From assembly GCA_030647125.1 (NCBI GenBank), contig JAUSKC010000017.1:12664-76663 (forward strand): 64,000 nt of DNA, given 5' to 3'. Below are positions 41,479 through 49,757 of this stretch, piece by piece. How positions within the stretch are numbered: the stretch's first letter is position 1; each line of letters begins with the position of its first letter. The notes under the pieces are model-generated. The model searched no databases, was not told the DNA's origin, and worked only from the letters and a program-made list of their open reading frames with translations. The translations under genes and the position numbers were made by a program. The DNA comes from Nanobdellota archaeon (lineage in GTDB: Archaea > Nanobdellota > Nanobdellia > Pacearchaeales > GW2011-AR1).

Positions 41479-41685
41479 ATGCACATTCTTCAACCAAAAC
41501 ACACGAAACTTAACGAAAAAGACGCTCAAGTTTTGCTTGACAAATTAAATGTTTCTAAATCACAACTTCCAAAAATTCTTTCTAGTGATACTGCTCTTCC
41601 CGAGGGATGTGAAGTTGGGGACATAATTAAAATTGAAAGAAAAGAAAAAGAAAATACTATTCTTTTCCATAGGGTTGTCGTATAA
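41479..41685 (+). CDS. rpoH: DNA-directed RNA polymerase subunit H (Rpb5 C-domain)
   Basis: HILQPKHTKLNEKDAQVLLDKLNVSKSQLPKI...GDIIKIERKE...HRVVV. Confidence 0.85.
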   Translation: MHILQPKHTKLNEKDAQVLLDKLNVSKSQLPKILSSDTALPEGCEVGDIIKIERKEKENTILFHRVVV

Positions 41686-44600
41686 TGTCCAGAAAAAATG
41701 ACCATATAATTGTAAAAAGATATTTGGAAGATCATTCATTAGTTGAGTCAAACATAATTTCTTTTAATCATTTTATAGAAAAAAGAATGCAGGAAATTGT
41801 GAATGATATTAACGAAAATATTGAAAGTGACGAATTTGAGATTCAGCTCGGAAAAATTGAAGTTGGAAAACCACAAATTATAGAAGCGGATGGAAGTTCC
41901 TCGCTGATAACTCCGAATGACGCGCGACTTAGAAATTTAACTTATTCAGCGCCTATAACCATGGAAATGACGGTTAAAAAAGATGATCAAGTTGATTCTC
42001 AAACCGTCGAAATTGGAAGAATTCCTGTAATGGTTAAGAGCAAAGCGTGCAATACTTATGGAATGAATGAAGAAAAATTGATTGAAAATTTTATAGATCC
42101 TAAAGATCCGGGGGGATATTTTATTGTCAATGGAAATGAAAGAGTCATGGTTATGGCTGAAGACCTCGCGGAAAACCAGCCGTTCATAGAAAATAATAAT
42201 AAAGGGGAATTAAAATTAAGGATGTTTTCTCTCAGGGGAACTTACAGAATTCCAGTAACAATTTCAGAAAGCAAAGAAGGAATTTTTGAAACAACATTTT
42301 CAAGATTTAGAGATATCCCTGCAGTCATACTTTTGAAAACATTAGGAATGACAAAAGAATCAGACATTGCAAAATACATCGGAAAAGAAACCGACAGTGT
42401 TATTGTAAATTTGTATGAATTTGCAAACATACAAAATGTCGAAGACGCGATGATGTACATTGCTGAAAAGACCGCGCTGCAAGGAACAAAAAAAGAAATC
42501 TTGGACAGAGTTAAGCAAAGAATTGATTCGTATCTTTTCCCTCACATTGGGACTAAGAAAGAAGACAGGCCGAAAAAAGCAATTACTTTATGCAAATTGA
42601 TAAAACAATTTTTAATTGCAAAAGAAAATCCAAAAATAAGAACTGATAAAGACCATTATGCGAATAAAAGAGTCCGATTAAGCGGCGATCTTTTAGCAAG
42701 TTTGTTCAGAGTCAATCTTGGAATTTTGTTAAGGGACGTTCAGTACTCATTGCAAAAATCTTCGAAGAGAAAAAAATTCTACTCTATAAAAACAATCGCT
42801 AAGTCGACGCTGTTTTCACACAGAGTTGAATCAGCAATAGCAACTGGAAGCTGGACAGGAGAACGTTCTGGGGTTACACAAAATATGGACAAGACAAATT
42901 ATTTAGCTACGATTTCGCAGCTGCAGAGAGTTGCATCTATGCTTGCTTCTGATCAGGAAAATTTCATGGCAAGAACTTTGCACCCAACGCATTACGGTCG
43001 TTTTTGCCCTATTGAAACGCCTGAAGGAACTGAAATTGGTTTGAGAAAAAATCTGGCAATTTTGGCGAGAGTATCTACAAGAATTGATCTTGAAGAAGAG
43101 AAGTTTTCAAAAGAAGCTGAAAAAATCGGCTTAGACAGAGAAGGTATTGAAGGGATGGAAGTTTTCTTCAACGGAAGGTACATTGGAAACGTCAAGGACT
43201 CAGAAAATTTTGTCAGAACCATAAGAGAAAAAAGAAGAGCAAGTGAACTCCCAGTAGAATTAAGCATAAGAAATGATGCGAGCTTGAATGTTATTAATAT
43301 ATCCACGGAGCCGGGAAGGGTCTTAAGACCCTTAATAATTATTGAAAACGAAAAATCAAAATTAAAACCGGAGCACATGGTAAGACTTGAACAAAAAGAA
43401 ATGAGATGGATTGATTTAATAAAAGAAGGCGTTATAGAATATATCGACGCTGCTGAAGAAGAGAATGCTTTAGTTGCTTTATTTGAAAAAGAAATTGGAG
43501 AGAAAAACACCCATTTAGAAGTTGATCCAATGGATTTATTCGGGGTCATAACCTCATTAGTTCCTTACGGAAATCATGACCAGTCATCTAGACTGAACAG
43601 AGGTTCTAAGACGCAGAAACAATCTCTTGGAATTTATGCTGCGAACTATCATGCGCGACTTGACACAGATGTCAGCATATTACAATACCCGCAAAAACCA
43701 ATCGTAAGAAGTTTCATGTACGATACTTTGGAGACATATCCTGCAGGGCAAAATCTTGTTGTTGCTATAATGCCTTATGAAGGTTACAATATGGAAGACG
43801 CTTTGATATTCAATAAAGGAAGTGTTGATAGAGGAGTTGGAAGAAGTTTTTATTATCGTCCGTACTCTTCAGTTGAGATGAATTATGCGGGTGGATTGAA
43901 GGATCAAATTTTAATCCCAGACAAAGATACTTCTGGCTACAAAACTGAAGCAAGTTATAGATATCTTGAAAACGACGGAATTGTTTCCCCTGAAGCCGAA
44001 GTCGGCGAAGGAGAAGTTTTAATTGGAAAAGTCTCGCCGCCAAAATTCCTGTCTGAAGCTAGAGAAATCGCTGTACGAACGAATAAAGAATCTTCAGTCA
44101 CAATGAGGCAAGAAGAACAAGGAATTGTCGATGCTGTTTTCATAACTGAAGACGATGAAGGAAATAAAATTATTCAGATTAAAACACGAGATCAAAGAAT
44201 TCCTGAACTTGGAGATAAATTCGCAACCGCTCACGGACAGAAAGGGGTTATAGGTGCAATAATTGCTGAAGAAAACATGCCTTTCACTTCTCGAGGAATA
44301 AAGCCGGACGTAATGTTTAATCCTCATGGTTTGCCGTCAAGAATGACTGTCGGATACTTATTGGAATTACTTGCCGGAAAAGTTGGATGTTTAAGAGGAG
44401 AAGTTGTCGACGGAACTTCATTCTCCGGAGAAAGCAAGAAAGAATTGGAAGAAGGATTGAAAGAAATGGGATTCAGATACGATGGCAAAGAAACAATGTA
44501 TAACGGAGTTACCGGAAAAAGAATGGATGCAAAGATCTTCATCGGAAATTTGTACTACCTTAAGTTGAAATATATGGTTGGAAATAAAATTCACGGCCGT

Positions 44601-44942
44601 GCTTCCGGAAAGATTGCATTGTTAACACGTCAGCCCGTGGAAGGACGTTCACGAGGAGGAGCATTAAGATTGGGAGAAATGGAACAGCAAGCACTTGTTG
44701 CTCACGGCGCGTCGCTGCTTTTGAAAGAAAGATATGATTCTGACAAAACTGTTTTATACATTGGAAAGAAAAGCGGAGAGATTGCAATCAAAGATAATAT
44801 TCGGGAAAAAATTTACTGTCCAGTTTCTGGAGAGACCGACGTGGAACCAGTTGAAGTTTCATACGCATTTAAATTATTAGTCGATGAATTGTTAGCTATG
44901 CATATTTATGCATCTTTCGATTTAAAGAATAAATACGAATAA
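41685..44942 (+). CDS. rpoB: DNA-directed RNA polymerase subunit B (unsplit)
   Basis: 1085-aa ORF with Rpb2-type motifs (GGYFIVNGNERV, HPTHYGRFCPIETPEG, GDKFATAHGQKG, RQPVEGRSRGGALRLGEME). TAATG overlap with rpoH. Confidence 0.95.
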   Translation: MSRKNDHIIVKRYLEDHSLVESNIISFNHFIEKRMQEIVNDINENIESDEFEIQLGKIEVGKPQIIEADGSSSLITPNDARLRNLTYSAPITMEMTVKKDDQVDSQTVEIGRIPVMVKSKACNTYGMNEEKLIENFIDPKDPGGYFIVNGNERVMVMAEDLAENQPFIENNNKGELKLRMFSLRGTYRIPVTISESKEGIFETTFSRFRDIPAVILLKTLGMTKESDIAKYIGKETDSVIVNLYEFANIQNVEDAMMYIAEKTALQGTKKEILDRVKQRIDSYLFPHIGTKKEDRPKKAITLCKLIKQFLIAKENPKIRTDKDHYANKRVRLSGDLLASLFRVNLGILLRDVQYSLQKSSKRKKFYSIKTIAKSTLFSHRVESAIATGSWTGERSGVTQNMDKTNYLATISQLQRVASMLASDQENFMARTLHPTHYGRFCPIETPEGTEIGLRKNLAILARVSTRIDLEEEKFSKEAEKIGLDREGIEGMEVFFNGRYIGNVKDSENFVRTIREKRRASELPVELSIRNDASLNVINISTEPGRVLRPLIIIENEKSKLKPEHMVRLEQKEMRWIDLIKEGVIEYIDAAEEENALVALFEKEIGEKNTHLEVDPMDLFGVITSLVPYGNHDQSSRLNRGSKTQKQSLGIYAANYHARLDTDVSILQYPQKPIVRSFMYDTLETYPAGQNLVVAIMPYEGYNMEDALIFNKGSVDRGVGRSFYYRPYSSVEMNYAGGLKDQILIPDKDTSGYKTEASYRYLENDGIVSPEAEVGEGEVLIGKVSPPKFLSEAREIAVRTNKESSVTMRQEEQGIVDAVFITEDDEGNKIIQIKTRDQRIPELGDKFATAHGQKGVIGAIIAEENMPFTSRGIKPDVMFNPHGLPSRMTVGYLLELLAGKVGCLRGEVVDGTSFSGESKKELEEGLKEMGFRYDGKETMYNGVTGKRMDAKIFIGNLYYLKLKYMVGNKIHGRASGKIALLTRQPVEGRSRGGALRLGEMEQQALVAHGASLLLKERYDSDKTVLYIGKKSGEIAIKDNIREKIYCPVSGETDVEPVEVSYAFKLLVDELLAMHIYASFDLKNKYE

Positions 44943-44943
44943 A

Positions 44944-47900
44944 ATGTCATTAAAATCAAGACCAGTAAAGAATAAAATTGGAGCAATAAGATTCAGCTTA
45001 GTTAATCCTGAACAAATTAAAAAGTTATCAGTTGCAAAGATTGTGACGCCAGAACTTTATGATATAGACGGGTATCCTGTCGACGGAGGATTAATGGATT
45101 TGAGGATGGGTGTTGTTGATCCTGGATTGAGATGTCGAACAGATGGAGCAGTTATAAAAGAATGTCCTGGATATCCTGGAAGCATTGACTTGGCAAGATC
45201 AGTAATACATTTGAAATATGTTCCGCTAATTGAAATGGGTTTGAGATGTTTCTGCCATGATTGTGGAAAATTAATGTTAAGTGAAAAAGACCTTGCTAAA
45301 TTCAGCCCCGCAAACAGAGCCAAAAAAGCAAAGGACTCAAAGAAATGTCCTTACTGCACCGCAAACCAAGAAAAAATCAAATTAGACAAACCAACAAGTT
45401 TCTATATAGGCAAAAAAAGAATTTTCCCTACGGAAATAAGAGAAATGCTTGTTAAAATTCCTGACGAGGATCTGAGAAAAATAGGAGTAAACCCTGAATC
45501 ATCAAGGCCCGAATGGTCTGTTTTAACGACGTTGTTGGTTCCTGCACCTACAATAAGACCATCAATTATTCTTGAAACAGGAGAAAGAAGTGAAGATGAT
45601 ATAACACATAAATTATCAGATATTATACGGGCTAATCAACGACTTTGGGAAAATTTGAATGCAGGAGCTCCTGAAGTTATAATTGAAGATTTATGGGACT
45701 TGCTTCAGTATCACATTACAACATTCTTTGACAATTCGGTTGCTCGTGTTCCTCCAGCACGTCACAGAAGCGGACAGCCATTAAAAACAATCACCGAAAG
45801 AATAAAGGGTAAAGAAGGAAGAATTAGAAAGAACTTGGCAGGTAAAAGAGTAAATTACTCTGCACGAACAGTTGTTTCACCAGATCCAAGAATTGAAATT
45901 AATGAAGTTGGTGTTCCTTATGAAATTGCAAAGATTGTTACCGTCGCTGAAGCGGTGACTGATTTAAACATTCACAAACTGAAAGAACTGGTTAATAAAG
46001 GAGAAGAATATCCCGGAGCAAATTATATTATAAGACCTGATGGAAAAAGAAAGAAAATAACCAGTGAATTAAAAGAAGAAATAATCAATGAACTTGTTAC
46101 TGGATATAAAGTTGAAAGACATTTGCAAGATGGGGACATAGTTTTATTCAATCGTCACCCTTCGCTGCACAAAGGAAGTTTAATGGCGCACTACGTAAAA
46201 GTTCTTCCTTCCAGAACTTTTAGATTGCATCCTGCAGTAACATTCCCTTACAACGCGGACTTCGACGGGGATGAAATGAATATTCACTCCCCACAGACGG
46301 AAGAAGCGCGCGCTGAAGCAAAGATTTTATTGGATGTAAAGAAAAATTTAATTTCCCCTAAGAACAATTCAAATTTAATCGGAACAAAAGCTGATTCTAT
46401 CACAGGAAATTATTTGCTTGGATTAAACGAGCTTGATAAGGCCTATGCTAATCAATTATTTTTCAAATCTGGAATTGACCTTAAAGTTTCCAAAAAAAGT
46501 ATTTCAGGATTGGAGATTTTCTCACACATAATTCCAAAAGGAACTAATTTTGAAAATGATTCTGTAAAGATCAAAGACGGGAAAATCATCTCCGGGCATA
46601 TTGACGGAAGCACATTTGGAGAAGAAGATGGAGAGTTGGTTAAAGAATTAGACAAAGCATTTGGAAGAACACAGACACTTGAGACATTAAAAAATATCTT
46701 TACTTTAGGTACAAATTACTTAACTGATAAAGGAATTACAATTTCTGTTGAAGATTTGGATTTGGATGAAAGTATTATTGAAAAAGGAAAGGAAATAATT
46801 GCACGCGCTGAGAAAAAAGTTGAAGAGTTAATTGCAAGTTATCACGACGGCACTTTAGAAATTATCCCAGGAAAAACATTTGAAGAAACAAGAGAATTGA
46901 AAATTCTTCAGACATTGAATGAAGTAAGAACAAAAATTGGAGAAGTTGTAAAGAAAGAATTCCCTGAAGATAATCCTGTTAGTAACATGATAAAATCGGG
47001 AGGGGGCGGAAATATCTTAAATATTACACAGATGGCTTCGTGCGTCGGGCAACAAGCATTTGCCGGCGGAAGAGTTGATATTGGTTATGTTGACAGAACA
47101 CTTTCATTTTTTAACAAAGGAGATTTATCCCCTCGTGCAAGAGGATTCATTCACAGTCCTTTCATAAAGGGTCTGCGTCCCGATGAATTTTTCTTCCAGG
47201 CAATTACAGGAAGAGATTCACTTATGGATACAGCGTTGAGAACTCCAAAGTCAGGATATCTTTACAGAAGATTGGCAAATGCGCTGCAGGATATAAGGGT
47301 AGAATACGATGGAACGGTAAGAGACAGTAATAATAATATAATTCAATTTATATATGGAGATGATGGAAAAGACGTTTCAAGGTTACATTTGAAAGAAAGC
47401 AAAGTTGATGCAGGCGAGGCAGTTGGAATTGTAACTGCGCAATCGTTCGGAGAATCATCGACGCAAATGGTCCTTAATACATTCCACATGGCAGGAGTTG
47501 CAGAAATGCAGGTTACTACAGGCCTTCCAAGAATTATAGAAATCTTTGATGCTCGTAAAAAACCTTCATCGCCAAAAATGGAAATTTACCTAGATAAGGA
47601 TTCAAACAATGAAAAAGATGCAAGAACCATCGCTGAAAAAATAAAAGAAGTAAAGCTTAAGGAAATTGCGTCGCATGTCAATTTGGACTTTGGCAATAAG
47701 ATTATTGAAATTGTTCTTGATAAAGAAGGAATGAGAAGAACACACACTAATTTGAAAAAAGTCGCAGAAAAATTAAAAGATCTTGGATACAAAGTCAACG
47801 AAAGAAGCGAGTCCATTGCTATTAACGCAAAAGATTCAACATTCAAGGAGATTTACAAAGTAAAGGAAAAACTTAAGGAAACAATTATTTCCGGACTAAA

Positions 47901-48447
47901 AGGAATCGAACAAATTTTAATTGTCAAGAGAGACAAGGACTTTGTAATTATAACTTTAGGAACTAATTTGAAAAAGATAATTGAGCTTAAAGAAGTCAAC
48001 ATTGAAAGGACAATTACAAATGATTTATATGAACTGGCAGAAGTTTTCGGAATTGAAGCCGCGCGACAATTGATAATAAATGAAATTGATCATACCTTAA
48101 GAAGTCAGGGTTTAGATATTGACATGAGACATTTGAAATTAATTGCAGACACTATGACAACTGCAGGCCTTGTTAAGGGAGTTACAAGAATGGGGATCAT
48201 TGCGCAGAAAGCATCGATACTTGCCAGAGCAACTTTTGAGACGCCAGTAAAACAATTCGTCAACGCCACCATAAAAGGTAACAGGGACTACTTAACAAGC
48301 GTCGTGGAGAATATTATACTAAATCAACCAATTCCCGTCGGAACAGGACTTCCAGGATTAGCAGTTCAAGTTGTTGGTTCTCTAGCAAAGAAAGATTCCG
48401 AAAAGAAAAAAGCTGATTCAAAGATTGTTGAGCAAGTTAATAAATAG
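44944..48447 (+). CDS. rpoA: DNA-directed RNA polymerase subunit A, with A' and A'' parts in one ORF
   Basis: 1167-aa ORF with these elements in one frame:
- NADFDGDEMN active site.
- Bridge helix (GRDSLMDTALRTPKSGYLYRRL).
- About 17 residues after YGDDG, the trigger-loop region that normally opens A'' (GEAVGIVTAQSFGESSTQMVLNTFHMAGV). Confidence 0.9.
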   Translation: MSLKSRPVKNKIGAIRFSLVNPEQIKKLSVAKIVTPELYDIDGYPVDGGLMDLRMGVVDPGLRCRTDGAVIKECPGYPGSIDLARSVIHLKYVPLIEMGLRCFCHDCGKLMLSEKDLAKFSPANRAKKAKDSKKCPYCTANQEKIKLDKPTSFYIGKKRIFPTEIREMLVKIPDEDLRKIGVNPESSRPEWSVLTTLLVPAPTIRPSIILETGERSEDDITHKLSDIIRANQRLWENLNAGAPEVIIEDLWDLLQYHITTFFDNSVARVPPARHRSGQPLKTITERIKGKEGRIRKNLAGKRVNYSARTVVSPDPRIEINEVGVPYEIAKIVTVAEAVTDLNIHKLKELVNKGEEYPGANYIIRPDGKRKKITSELKEEIINELVTGYKVERHLQDGDIVLFNRHPSLHKGSLMAHYVKVLPSRTFRLHPAVTFPYNADFDGDEMNIHSPQTEEARAEAKILLDVKKNLISPKNNSNLIGTKADSITGNYLLGLNELDKAYANQLFFKSGIDLKVSKKSISGLEIFSHIIPKGTNFENDSVKIKDGKIISGHIDGSTFGEEDGELVKELDKAFGRTQTLETLKNIFTLGTNYLTDKGITISVEDLDLDESIIEKGKEIIARAEKKVEELIASYHDGTLEIIPGKTFEETRELKILQTLNEVRTKIGEVVKKEFPEDNPVSNMIKSGGGGNILNITQMASCVGQQAFAGGRVDIGYVDRTLSFFNKGDLSPRARGFIHSPFIKGLRPDEFFFQAITGRDSLMDTALRTPKSGYLYRRLANALQDIRVEYDGTVRDSNNNIIQFIYGDDGKDVSRLHLKESKVDAGEAVGIVTAQSFGESSTQMVLNTFHMAGVAEMQVTTGLPRIIEIFDARKKPSSPKMEIYLDKDSNNEKDARTIAEKIKEVKLKEIASHVNLDFGNKIIEIVLDKEGMRRTHTNLKKVAEKLKDLGYKVNERSESIAINAKDSTFKEIYKVKEKLKETIISGLKGIEQILIVKRDKDFVIITLGTNLKKIIELKEVNIERTITNDLYELAEVFGIEAARQLIINEIDHTLRSQGLDIDMRHLKLIADTMTTAGLVKGVTRMGIIAQKASILARATFETPVKQFVNATIKGNRDYLTSVVENIILNQPIPVGTGLPGLAVQVVGSLAKKDSEKKKADSKIVEQVNK

Positions 48448-48510
48448 TTTACAAAACAAAAGTTTAAAAACAAAATAATTCTTCCCGAATTAACAAAAGA
48501 GTTTTTCAAA

Positions 48511-48927
48511 ATGGTTAGAACAATTGAAATGCAGGATATGCGTTACCTTAATCTTTTCGAAAGAGTTACTAGGGTCACGACGAGGTTCTGTATAAAATAT
48601 AACGACACGCTGATTTTCTGCGTGCCGCAAGCGATGATTGCACGCGCCGTCGGGCCTGAAGGAAGAAATGTAAGAAAGATTCATGAAATTCTAGGGAAAA
48701 GAATTAAAATAATTTCGGCACCGCAAGGAATTGAAGATGTAAGAAAATTCATTTCAGAAATTGTTGCGCCGGTTACATTCAAAGATCTGGAAATCAAGGA
48801 CAATGAAATAATCTTAACTGCAGGAAGCCAAAGCAAAGCAGCGCTGATAGGAAGAAACAAAAGGCGCCTTATGGAAATGCAAAAGATTTCACAGGATTTC
48901 TTTAATATGGATTTCAAGATTGTTTAA
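48511..48927 (+). CDS. nusA: archaeal NusA-like KH-domain protein
   Basis: RYLNLFERVTRV...VGPEGRNVRKI...LIGRNKRR gives two KH-like modules, in the canonical position after rpoA. Confidence 0.8.
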   Translation: MVRTIEMQDMRYLNLFERVTRVTTRFCIKYNDTLIFCVPQAMIARAVGPEGRNVRKIHEILGKRIKIISAPQGIEDVRKFISEIVAPVTFKDLEIKDNEIILTAGSQSKAALIGRNKRRLMEMQKISQDFFNMDFKIV

Positions 48928-49466: not shown

Positions 49467-49757
49467 ATGGCTGGCGGAACTGGAACAGGTTATGGTGCTG
49501 ATACAACTATAGTTATTCAAGAAGCACAAAATCGAAGAAGATTAGAAAGTATTATTGATGTTGTAAAAATATTAGGGGTTGATGAAATTTATATCCCAAA
49601 CTCCCGAGGAGTCTCTCATGAAGATTTAATGAATGGCTTTACAGCAGAAGGTTATGATATTAATAAAACAAATTTTAGTTATCAAAATAAAAGATACGAA
49701 TTTGTAGCTTGCAGTATTGGAGAAAAAATGTTAAGGGGGATAAAGAGAACAGAATAA
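49467..49757 (+). CDS. hypothetical protein inserted between rps12 and rps7
   Basis: 96-aa ORF. Its ATG is directly preceded by a 14-nt copy (49453-49466) of the last codons and stop of rps12 (49403-49416). Confidence 0.45.
   Translation: MAGGTGTGYGADTTIVIQEAQNRRRLESIIDVVKILGVDEIYIPNSRGVSHEDLMNGFTAEGYDINKTNFSYQNKRYEFVACSIGEKMLRGIKRTE

Follow-up and report, generated by a model that had tools for sequence, protein, structure and literature searches.

The rpoA gene and its operon

The window analysed here, a stretch of 64,000 nt of archaeal DNA, contains an RNA polymerase operon with the native archaeal gene order rpoH-rpoB-rpoA-nusA-rps12-rps7 (Table 1). The ATG of rpoA begins 1 nt after the stop codon of rpoB, and no L30e gene was seen between rpoA and nusA at this locus. 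In the usual archaeal state, the largest polymerase subunit is encoded by two genes, rpoA1 for the A′ chain and rpoA2 for the A″ chain, with the break falling after the bridge helix and before the trigger loop, whereas here it is encoded by one stop-free frame.

Table 1. Coordinates of the RNA polymerase operon genes in the window and of the features of the fused rpoA
Feature	Position (nt)	Strand	Basis
rpoH, opening the RNAP operon (Rpo5/Rpb5 C-terminal domain)	41479..41685	+	Pfam PF01191, E 1.1e-15
rpoB, unsplit, 1085 aa	41685..44942	+	ORF list, translation
rpoA, fused A′+A″ (Rpo1), 1167 aa, ATG start	44944..48447	+	ORF list, Pfam, NCBIfam
A′-equivalent module, residues 1-808, ending at YGDDG	44944..47367	+	NCBIfam A′ profiles
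Metal-A catalytic motif NADFDGDEMN, residues 437-446	46252..46281	+	Motif search
Bridge helix, residues ~746-782	47179..47289	+	AF2 helices 746-764 and 770-782; aligns to yeast Rpb1 764-884
15-residue junction KDVSRLHLKESKVDA, residues 809-823, between YGDDG and GEAVG	47368..47412	+	Codon-level reading
Trigger loop and flanking helices, residues 824-870, GEAVG...NTFHMAGVA...	47413..47553	+	Alignment with Rpb1 1055-1168; PDB A″ chains align from ~51-58
A″-equivalent module, residues 824-1136	47413..48351	+	TIGR02389
C-terminal tail, residues 1137-1167	48352..48444	+	31 residues past A″ profile end; low pLDDT (AF2)
nusA-like KH-domain gene, directly 3′ of rpoA	48511..48927	+	Pfam KH_2, KH_5

A sequence-only reading of this DNA had proposed that a single 1167-codon ORF carries the hallmarks of both A′ and A″, and the ORF list, domain and profile matches and motifs all confirmed this. 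Rpb1 domains 1-5 follow one another over residues 10-1092 (Pfam PF04997, PF00623, PF04983, PF05000 and PF04998). Positions 5-870 of the 883 in an NCBIfam A′ profile match residues 8-823, a second A′ profile matches residues 10-814, and positions 36-361 of the 367 in the A″ profile TIGR02389 match residues 816-1136; the A′ and A″ matches thus abut at residues 816-823. The A′ profile NF006336 cleared its cut-off of 819 with 1056 bits, and TIGR02390 (1019 bits, cut-off 1043) and TIGR02389 (381 bits, cut-off 421) fell slightly under theirs, as fits a fused protein from which the tails are missing. A search of the source genome with the A″ profile found no second rpoA2-type match besides the fused rpoA.

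The catalytic landmarks are in place on both sides of the junction. The three aspartates of the metal-A motif (D439, D441 and D443) are invariant in our alignment A1. The bridge-helix sequence FFFQAIT... starts at residue 749 and includes Pro768 within ...ALRTPKSGY...; by our own positional reading, this proline (RTPKSGY) corresponds to neA′ P810 as numbered in PMC8204694. YGDDG lies at residue 804 (nt 47353), GEAVG at residue 824 (nt 47413) and the trigger-loop HMAGVA at residue 848, where the conserved histidine is H848 in NTFHMAGV. With its zinc sites, metal-A motif, bridge helix and trigger loop, the fused RpoA is a complete catalytic largest subunit, and it should work as in other archaeal RNA polymerases. 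The last 16 residues, which are Lys-rich, are specific to the fused clade: the fused genes have them and the split relatives do not.

The junction and the segment it replaces

The sequence-only reading had placed about 17 residues, at about 47350-47425, between the A′ and A″ parts, which was essentially right: codon-level reading gives 15. The junction KDVSRLHLKESKVDA stands where split relatives have the A′ tail, a stop codon, a spacer, a start codon and the A″ N-terminus. It retains the beginning of the A′ tail (KDVSR here, IDVSK/R where the genes are split) and KVDA, the final residues ahead of the trigger loop. Among 92 loci of the same order that were read codon by codon, the junction is 14-15 aa long in 91, the remaining one having a length of 17 that looks like an alignment offset. 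Its consensus at these loci is [KIL]DVSK-LH-x4-[IVL]x[PSA], with the histidine kept in 86/92.

An expected shortfall of roughly 100 aa relative to typical A′+A″ sums came out at 90-130 aa. RpoA has 1167 aa; the sum A′+A″ has a median of 1253 aa in split relatives of the same class and amounts to 1273 aa (880 + 393) in PDB entry 36rp, whose co-entries include 7ok0, and 1297 aa (906 + 391) in 4qiw. About 60 aa of the deficit lie at the junction and about 18 aa after residue 121, and it is partly offset by the 16-aa Lys-rich C-terminal gain. The accompanying proposal that the A′ C-terminal tail and the A″ N-terminal segment are what is missing was borne out by the profiles, the PDB chains and the split relatives. 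Split Rpo1N/Rpo1C proteins (4qiw_A/C, 2pmz_A/C and 36rp_A/C) share the operon rpoH-rpoB-rpoA-nusA with this locus, but RpoA is one chain; the PDB A′ chains align to it up to their residue 855/881 and the A″ chains from about residue 51-58, leaving the last ~25 A′ and first ~50 A″ residues without counterpart.

Residues 764-884 and 1055-1168 of yeast Rpb1 align to adjacent parts of RpoA, whereas the foot, residues 885-1054, has no counterpart; the lost segment is the archaeal remnant of this foot. We searched the six-frame ORFs of the source genome for a separate copy of the lost A″ N-terminus, using an HMM built from the A″ N-termini of 39 split relatives. No convincing match emerged, the best one having an E of 0.019 over 20 positions; with so short a profile and a genome 88.6% complete, this speaks only weakly for absence.

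A fused rpoA had been called eukaryote-like, but the likeness is superficial and holds for the single chain: Rpb1/Rpc1 were the top Foldseek matches (E about 1e-79). It does not extend to the foot, which is absent, or to the long Rpb1-type C-terminal extension, in place of which RpoA has 31 residues past the end of the A″ profile (1136). By sequence, eukaryotic Rpb1/Rpc1 are not its closest relatives, and RpoA groups with its own class. An AF2 model of the whole protein had a mean pLDDT of 71 and a pTM of 0.41 (85/70/66 for the blocks around the junction), and with it Foldseek recovered an Rpb1-like fold only (TM 0.39); the global arrangement is too uncertain for the geometry of the junction to be measured from this model.

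Distribution and direction of change

The open junction is a property of the whole order. It is contiguous, with no stop codon, in 147 of 151 genomes (9 families, 82 genera), and all 92 same-order loci read codon by codon are fused. The rest of the class differs: among the 363 genomes of other orders that gave a match, 361 have that match broken at query position ~125/128. This tally includes six unpublished genomes (G398, G283, G434, G361, G284 and G372), all in the group with two matches and outside the loci read codon by codon, and omitting them alters no conclusion. Some loci of other orders appeared to be long-junction fusions, with open frames of 1240-1390 aa. Of 45 apparent-fusion and control loci fetched, 43 were read codon by codon, and in all of them a stop codon separates A′ from A″ at the canonical site; the reported open-frame length bridges a single in-frame stop, and we rejected these candidates. 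In 39 of the 43, the A′ tail measures 20-26 aa and the A″ N-terminus 46-57 aa. Because A″ of a split relative aligns from its residue 2 with residue 11 onwards of the PDB A″ chain 2pmz_C, the cut in these relatives is at the canonical site.

Such a distribution removes the novelty that had been attached to the gene, as a fused rpoA is routine across the order and has been published before. A ‘secondary fusion in Pacearchaeota’ is named by Da Cunha et al. (2017, PLoS Genet; PMC5484517), and Nottebaum & Weinzierl (2021, Front Mol Biosci; PMC8204694) describe two pacearchaeal sequences with A′ and A″ as one polypeptide. Our RpoA belongs to the same lineage and has no essential difference from that description. 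The fusion in Pacearchaeota was thus reported in 2017 and again in 2021. An archaeal fusion/fission paper (PMC11237513) and an AOA ancestral-reconstruction paper (PMC7554672) do not mention this gene.

In a tree built without the junction columns, a branch with an SH-aLRT of 100 separates all fused genes from the split ones, implying a single change of state. With outgroups added, the fused clade and the split genes of its class are sisters, within a clade supported at 98. The fused clade is not nested among the split genes, and the next outgroups are long-branched, with mixed fused and split states. The phylogeny proposed earlier as a way of choosing between secondary fusion and an ancestral state returns one fused clade and leaves the direction of change unproven. 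RpoA is 52% identical to P0012, an A′-only protein inside the split clade of the same class, and 36-45% identical to the fused genes of Korarchaeota and Bathyarchaeota.

These data fit a model in which the gene is a normal Pacearchaeota-type rpoA, very probably the product of a single, old secondary fusion in the ancestor of the order that removed the reduced foot. We infer that the change ran from split to fused. The fusion is best read as derived, and not as a retained Rpb1-like state, because in the tree the protein falls with the split genes of its class, and because it lacks both the foot and the Rpb1-type C-terminal extension. In the ancestor, rpoA1 and rpoA2 would have been brought into one reading frame once. 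At the old boundary, A′ would have lost ~16 residues from its C-terminal tail and A″ ~45 from its N-terminus, together with the stop codon, spacer and start codon that lay between. A 14-15-residue linker now runs straight from the bridge-helix module into the trigger loop. The lost segment may have served mainly to hold the two chains together, and would have become dispensable after their covalent joining.

An error of assembly or sequencing, by which a stop codon was lost or two genes were chimerically joined, deserves a thought in a metagenome-assembled genome of 26 contigs and 88.6% completeness. Such an error would, however, have to recur in 147 independently assembled genomes and in 80 named records deriving from numerous studies, with the length and motif of the junction conserved, and loss of the stop alone would leave a junction of ~70 aa, not the 15 observed. 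The DNA at 47320-47450 has no long homopolymer run prone to frameshifts. The artefact reading is effectively refuted. A more serious contender is an ancestral fused state, in which an A-type gene like that of Thaumarchaeota, Korarchaeota and Bathyarchaeota was kept and later trimmed, the splits of the other orders having arisen separately. RpoA is a single-gene, A-type subunit in Thaumarchaeota (PMC5484517), Korarchaeota and Bathyarchaeota likewise have one ORF (P0013 and P0005; PMC5484517), and the failure of the fused clade to nest inside the split clade counts in favour of this scenario. Yet split relatives are cut exactly at the canonical site of the PDB A″ chains, so the scenario needs repeated identical splits. 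The A-type proteins P0005, P0013 and P0015 have junctions of 86-92 aa and lengths of 1268-1339 aa, against 15 aa and 1167 aa here, and the Korarchaeota and Bathyarchaeota proteins branch elsewhere in the tree. The higher identity to P0012 than to these proteins and the term secondary fusion used by Da Cunha et al. (PMC5484517) point the same way, and we consider an ancestral fused state improbable.

The secondary fusion may have come about in two steps. A point mutation in the A′ stop codon could have produced a fusion with a full-length junction that was shortened afterwards by an in-frame deletion, instead of a single deletion spanning the boundary. In many split relatives A″ is in frame with A′ after one stop codon, directly followed by ATG in five, so that one substitution would fuse the genes, and full-junction fusions occur in other small-genome archaea (P0008, 69 aa; P0096, 84 aa). 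However, no long-junction member of the order appeared among the 92 loci and 147 genomes, and where the tree pairs long- with short-junction forms, it does so on long branches. The two-step route is a variant of the secondary fusion that we prefer, not a competitor to it, and we give it somewhat less than an even chance.

Significance and other trimmed fusions

Since the Pacearchaeota fusion is published and universal in the order, the locus adds little as a discovery. As far as the consulted portions of PMC5484517 and PMC8204694 go, these papers note the fusion only, and say nothing of the extent of the deletion, its conservation across the order or a junction motif; what our analysis appears to add to them is how far exactly the deletion reaches, the conserved motif and four further lineages with trimmed fusions. 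The derived, clade-specific status of the fusion matters because rpoA, either split or fused, has served as a rare genomic character for rooting the archaeal tree and placing eukaryotes (PMC5484517). The locus also shows that an archaeal RNA polymerase can dispense with the ~60-residue foot remnant, which could guide the design of a minimal recombinant polymerase.

The four further lineages are very divergent archaea with a single-gene RpoA and junctions of 10-22 aa (P0004, P0010, P0035 and P0151). Their proteins are 33-43% identical to the RpoA described here (P0001) and 30-41% identical among themselves. We suggest, tentatively, that small-genome (DPANN-type) archaea may have fused rpoA1 and rpoA2 recurrently, excision of the segment at the split site following or accompanying the fusion. 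If so, the A′ tail and the A″ N-terminus (the reduced foot) would mainly clasp the two chains, becoming dispensable once these are continuous, and the short-junction lineages would represent natural minimal, foot-less forms of Rpo1. Two other proteins with 11-aa junctions (P0087 and P0088) were considered as archaeal cases and rejected, as they cluster with microsporidian RPC1 and so represent reduced eukaryotic Pol III subunits. Each of the four archaeal short-junction genes lies directly 3′ of rpoB, which is itself split in two of the four.

The fused subunit A and its operon

The rpoA product of the window, P0001, is a single chain in which the A' and A'' parts of RNA polymerase subunit A meet at a junction, namely the residues between YGDDG and the trigger-loop motif GEAVG. 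The sequence-only reading had described one open reading frame with a very short junction, and this is accurate (table below). Pfam places Rpb1 domains 1 to 5 on P0001 in order. Positions 5-870 of 883 in the curated A' model match residues 8-823 and positions 36-361 of 367 in the A'' model match residues 816-1136, so that the two halves abut, leaving about 12 model positions at the A' end and 35 at the A'' start without a match. P0001 is the only A''-type match (n=1) in its genome, an assembly of 0.64 Mb in 26 contigs that is 88.6% complete.

Coordinates of the rpoA region, of motifs in P0001 (1167 aa) and of trimmed single-gene RpoA proteins at fetched loci (L-numbers)
Feature	Position	Strand	Description
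rpoH, upstream of rpoB	41479..41685	+	Pfam Rpb5_C
rpoB, unsplit	41685..44942	+	ORF, 1085 codons
rpoA, fused A'+A''	44944..48447	+	ORF, 1167 codons, ATG start
NADFDGDEMN	residue 437		motif in P0001
Bridge helix	from about residue 746		
YGDDG	residue 804, nt 47353		
Junction KDVSRLHLKESKVDA	nt 47368-47412		15 residues
GEAVG	residue 824, nt 47413		
Trigger-loop His	residue 848		
96-aa ORF between rps12 and rps7	49467-49757		without Pfam match
P0004	L144:4001-7477		junction 10 aa
P0035	L148:3312-6749		junction 15 aa
P0010	L145:4001-7507		junction 22 aa
P0151	L149:3509-6946		junction 22 aa

The gene starts one base past the rpoB stop codon and is followed by genes for a NusA-like KH protein, rps12, the unknown 96-aa protein and rps7. 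The gap between rpoA and the nusA-like gene is only 63 nt long (48448-48510) and therefore holds no L30e gene.

An AF2 model of P0001, built on 43 sequences (mean pLDDT 71, pTM 0.41; 85, 70 and 66 in the 10-residue blocks around the junction), is compatible with a normal fold, but not precise enough for geometry to be measured. The junction is modelled as a short helix (811-816) between a strand (799-801) and the first trigger-loop helix (828-836), and the best Foldseek matches are the single-chain Rpb1 and Rpc1 (E ~1e-79, TM 0.39). Within the active site, the bridge helix carries a proline, Pro768 (...ALRTPKSGY..., window 47245-47247), which by our own reading of Nottebaum & Weinzierl (2021, PMC8204694) occupies the position of neA' P810, called unusual there in Nanoarchaeum equitans. 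The trigger loop reads GESSTQ, versus GEPGTQ in most polymerases, and with Pro768 this gives the window's polymerase what appear to be 'nanoarchaeal' active-site substitutions.

Fused genes of the order and split genes of its relatives

Comparison of rpoA structure among relatives showed the fused state to be routine in the window's order. In a sample of 151 genomes from 9 families and 84 genera, matches were found in 147, spanning 82 genera, and all 147 continue unbroken across the junction, with zero stop codons; codon-by-codon reading of 92 loci found all 92 fused, and together these results effectively rule out an assembly artefact. The junction is 14 aa long in 78 of the 92 loci, 15 aa in 13 and 17 aa in one, which looks like an alignment offset. 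Its consensus is [K/I/L]-D-V-S-K-L-H-x4-[I/V/L]-x-[P/S/A], with the His retained in 86 loci; selection on the junction is evident from this constancy of length and conservation of residues.

A separate phylum sample of 401 genomes comprised 30 of the window's order, its own genome included, all with one contiguous match (30/30), and 371 from different orders within the same class. Of these 371, 363 gave a match, and in 361 the match is interrupted at query position ~125/128 (residues ~814/817) and falls into two or three pieces. Open frames of 1240-1390 aa gave the appearance of further fusions in these orders, an interpretation rejected because at all 43 loci read (of 45 fetched) a stop codon separates A' from A'', with the two often sharing a frame; adjoining in-frame pairs misleadingly register as a single 'open frame' with a length of 1240-1320 aa. 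At five split loci (L105, L107, L112, L114 and L120) the A'' ATG directly follows the A' stop in frame, such that one stop-codon substitution would fuse the genes. Across 39 tabulated loci, the split A' tail extends 20-26 aa past YG[ED]DG (IDVSKSE.G.INV..I...), and the A'' N-terminus 46-57 aa ahead of GExVG (M..L.KEYE.KLP..LL.E...K.....Y..A.V..). The split site is the canonical one, since the alignment of one such relative's A'' to the PDB A'' chain 2pmz_C begins at residue 2 of the former and residue 11 of the latter, and that to yeast Rpb1 begins at Rpb1 residue 1036. In a relative from a different order (L138, genome G224), the open frame of the A'' gene extends to 865 aa, and a large insertion past GESIGIITAESFGEPGTQM in the trigger loop looks like a candidate intein.

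Once the junction columns were taken out of the alignment, a maximum-likelihood tree built from 42 fused genes and 37 split ones set all the fused genes on one side of a single branch (SH-aLRT 100), and hence only one change of state is needed. When outgroups found by searching 1.84 billion representatives are added, the fused genes again make up one clade (support 100), whose sister group is the split genes of the same class (99); both lie within a clade with support 98. The fused genes therefore have one origin. As to secondary versus ancestral fusion, the direction from split to fused, though not proven by the tree, is the more parsimonious one, given that solved archaeal A'/A'' structures share the split site.

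The split-first reading is also the published one: Da Cunha et al. (2017, PMC5484517) place 'a secondary fusion' 'in Pacearchaeota', report an A-type gene in Thaumarchaeota and Korarchaeota, and describe Thaumarchaea and Bathyarchaea sequences as fused. Nottebaum & Weinzierl (2021, PMC8204694) give A' and A'' as one polypeptide in two pacearchaeal sequences; rpoA fusion goes unmentioned in a 2026 preprint about complete Nanobdellota genomes. The rpoA fusion is a genuine and well-conserved feature with a readily understood mechanism; it has been described before and is the usual state in this order.

Extent of the deletion

The A' and A'' tails that the sequence-only reading had thought missing are indeed absent from P0001, as alignment to PDB chains and Rpb1 bears out. 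Alignment of the A' chains stops at residue 881 of 906 (4qiw_A) or 855 of 880 (36rp_A, 2pmz_A), and that of the A'' chains starts only at residue 54 (4qiw_C) or 51-58 (36rp_C, 2waq_C, 2pmz_C, 3hkz_C). In yeast Rpb1, residues 764-884 align with P0001 700-822 and residues 1055-1168 with P0001 818-928, so that the foot of Rpb1 (~885-1054) has no counterpart. The old tail's first residues (KDVSR) and the last before the trigger loop (KVDA) are retained; everything between, including stop, spacer and start, is gone. A profile search of the 88.6% complete assembly for the lost A'' N-terminus elsewhere returned nothing convincing.

Relative to the 37 split relatives, fused genes lack about 60 junction columns, a few further small columns, and ~18 residues after residue 121 (window ~45306), between the two Cys pairs that bind zinc in the clamp (median length 1162 versus 1253 aa). 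The fused clade has gained a 16-aa Lys-rich C-terminal extension, SEKKKADSKIVEQVNK (window 48400-48444), absent in split relatives and modelled with low confidence.

Single-gene RpoA in other lineages

The search of representatives also yielded single-gene RpoA from further archaea. In contrast to P0001, that of Bathyarchaeota and Korarchaeota has a full junction of 86-92 aa. Full junctions also occur in the archaeal P0008 (69 aa; L150:4001-7537) and P0096 (84 aa), which could be an intermediate state, fused but still untrimmed. P0004, P0010, P0035 and P0151, very divergent archaeal proteins from outside the window's order (P0010 comes from a MAG deposited under 'Nanohaloarchaeota'), appear to have been fused independently, with the junction trimmed. 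These four share 33-43% identity with P0001 and 30-41% among themselves; P0008 and P0096 share 42% and 37% with P0001 and 31-45% with the others. All six genes lie directly 3' of rpoB (split with P0004 and P0010), and an Rpb5-type rpoH was called upstream for P0004, P0010, P0008 and P0096. Together with the in-frame adjoining genes of split relatives, these full and trimmed fusions, few and long-branched, suggest that fusion followed by loss of the redundant segment may be a recurrent route in small-genome archaea. P0087 (1125 aa) and P0088 (1246 aa), two RPC1-like proteins of eukaryotes that group with microsporidian Pol III, likewise keep only 11 residues from YG-DG to the trigger loop, indicating that the foot was lost in parallel in reduced eukaryotes.
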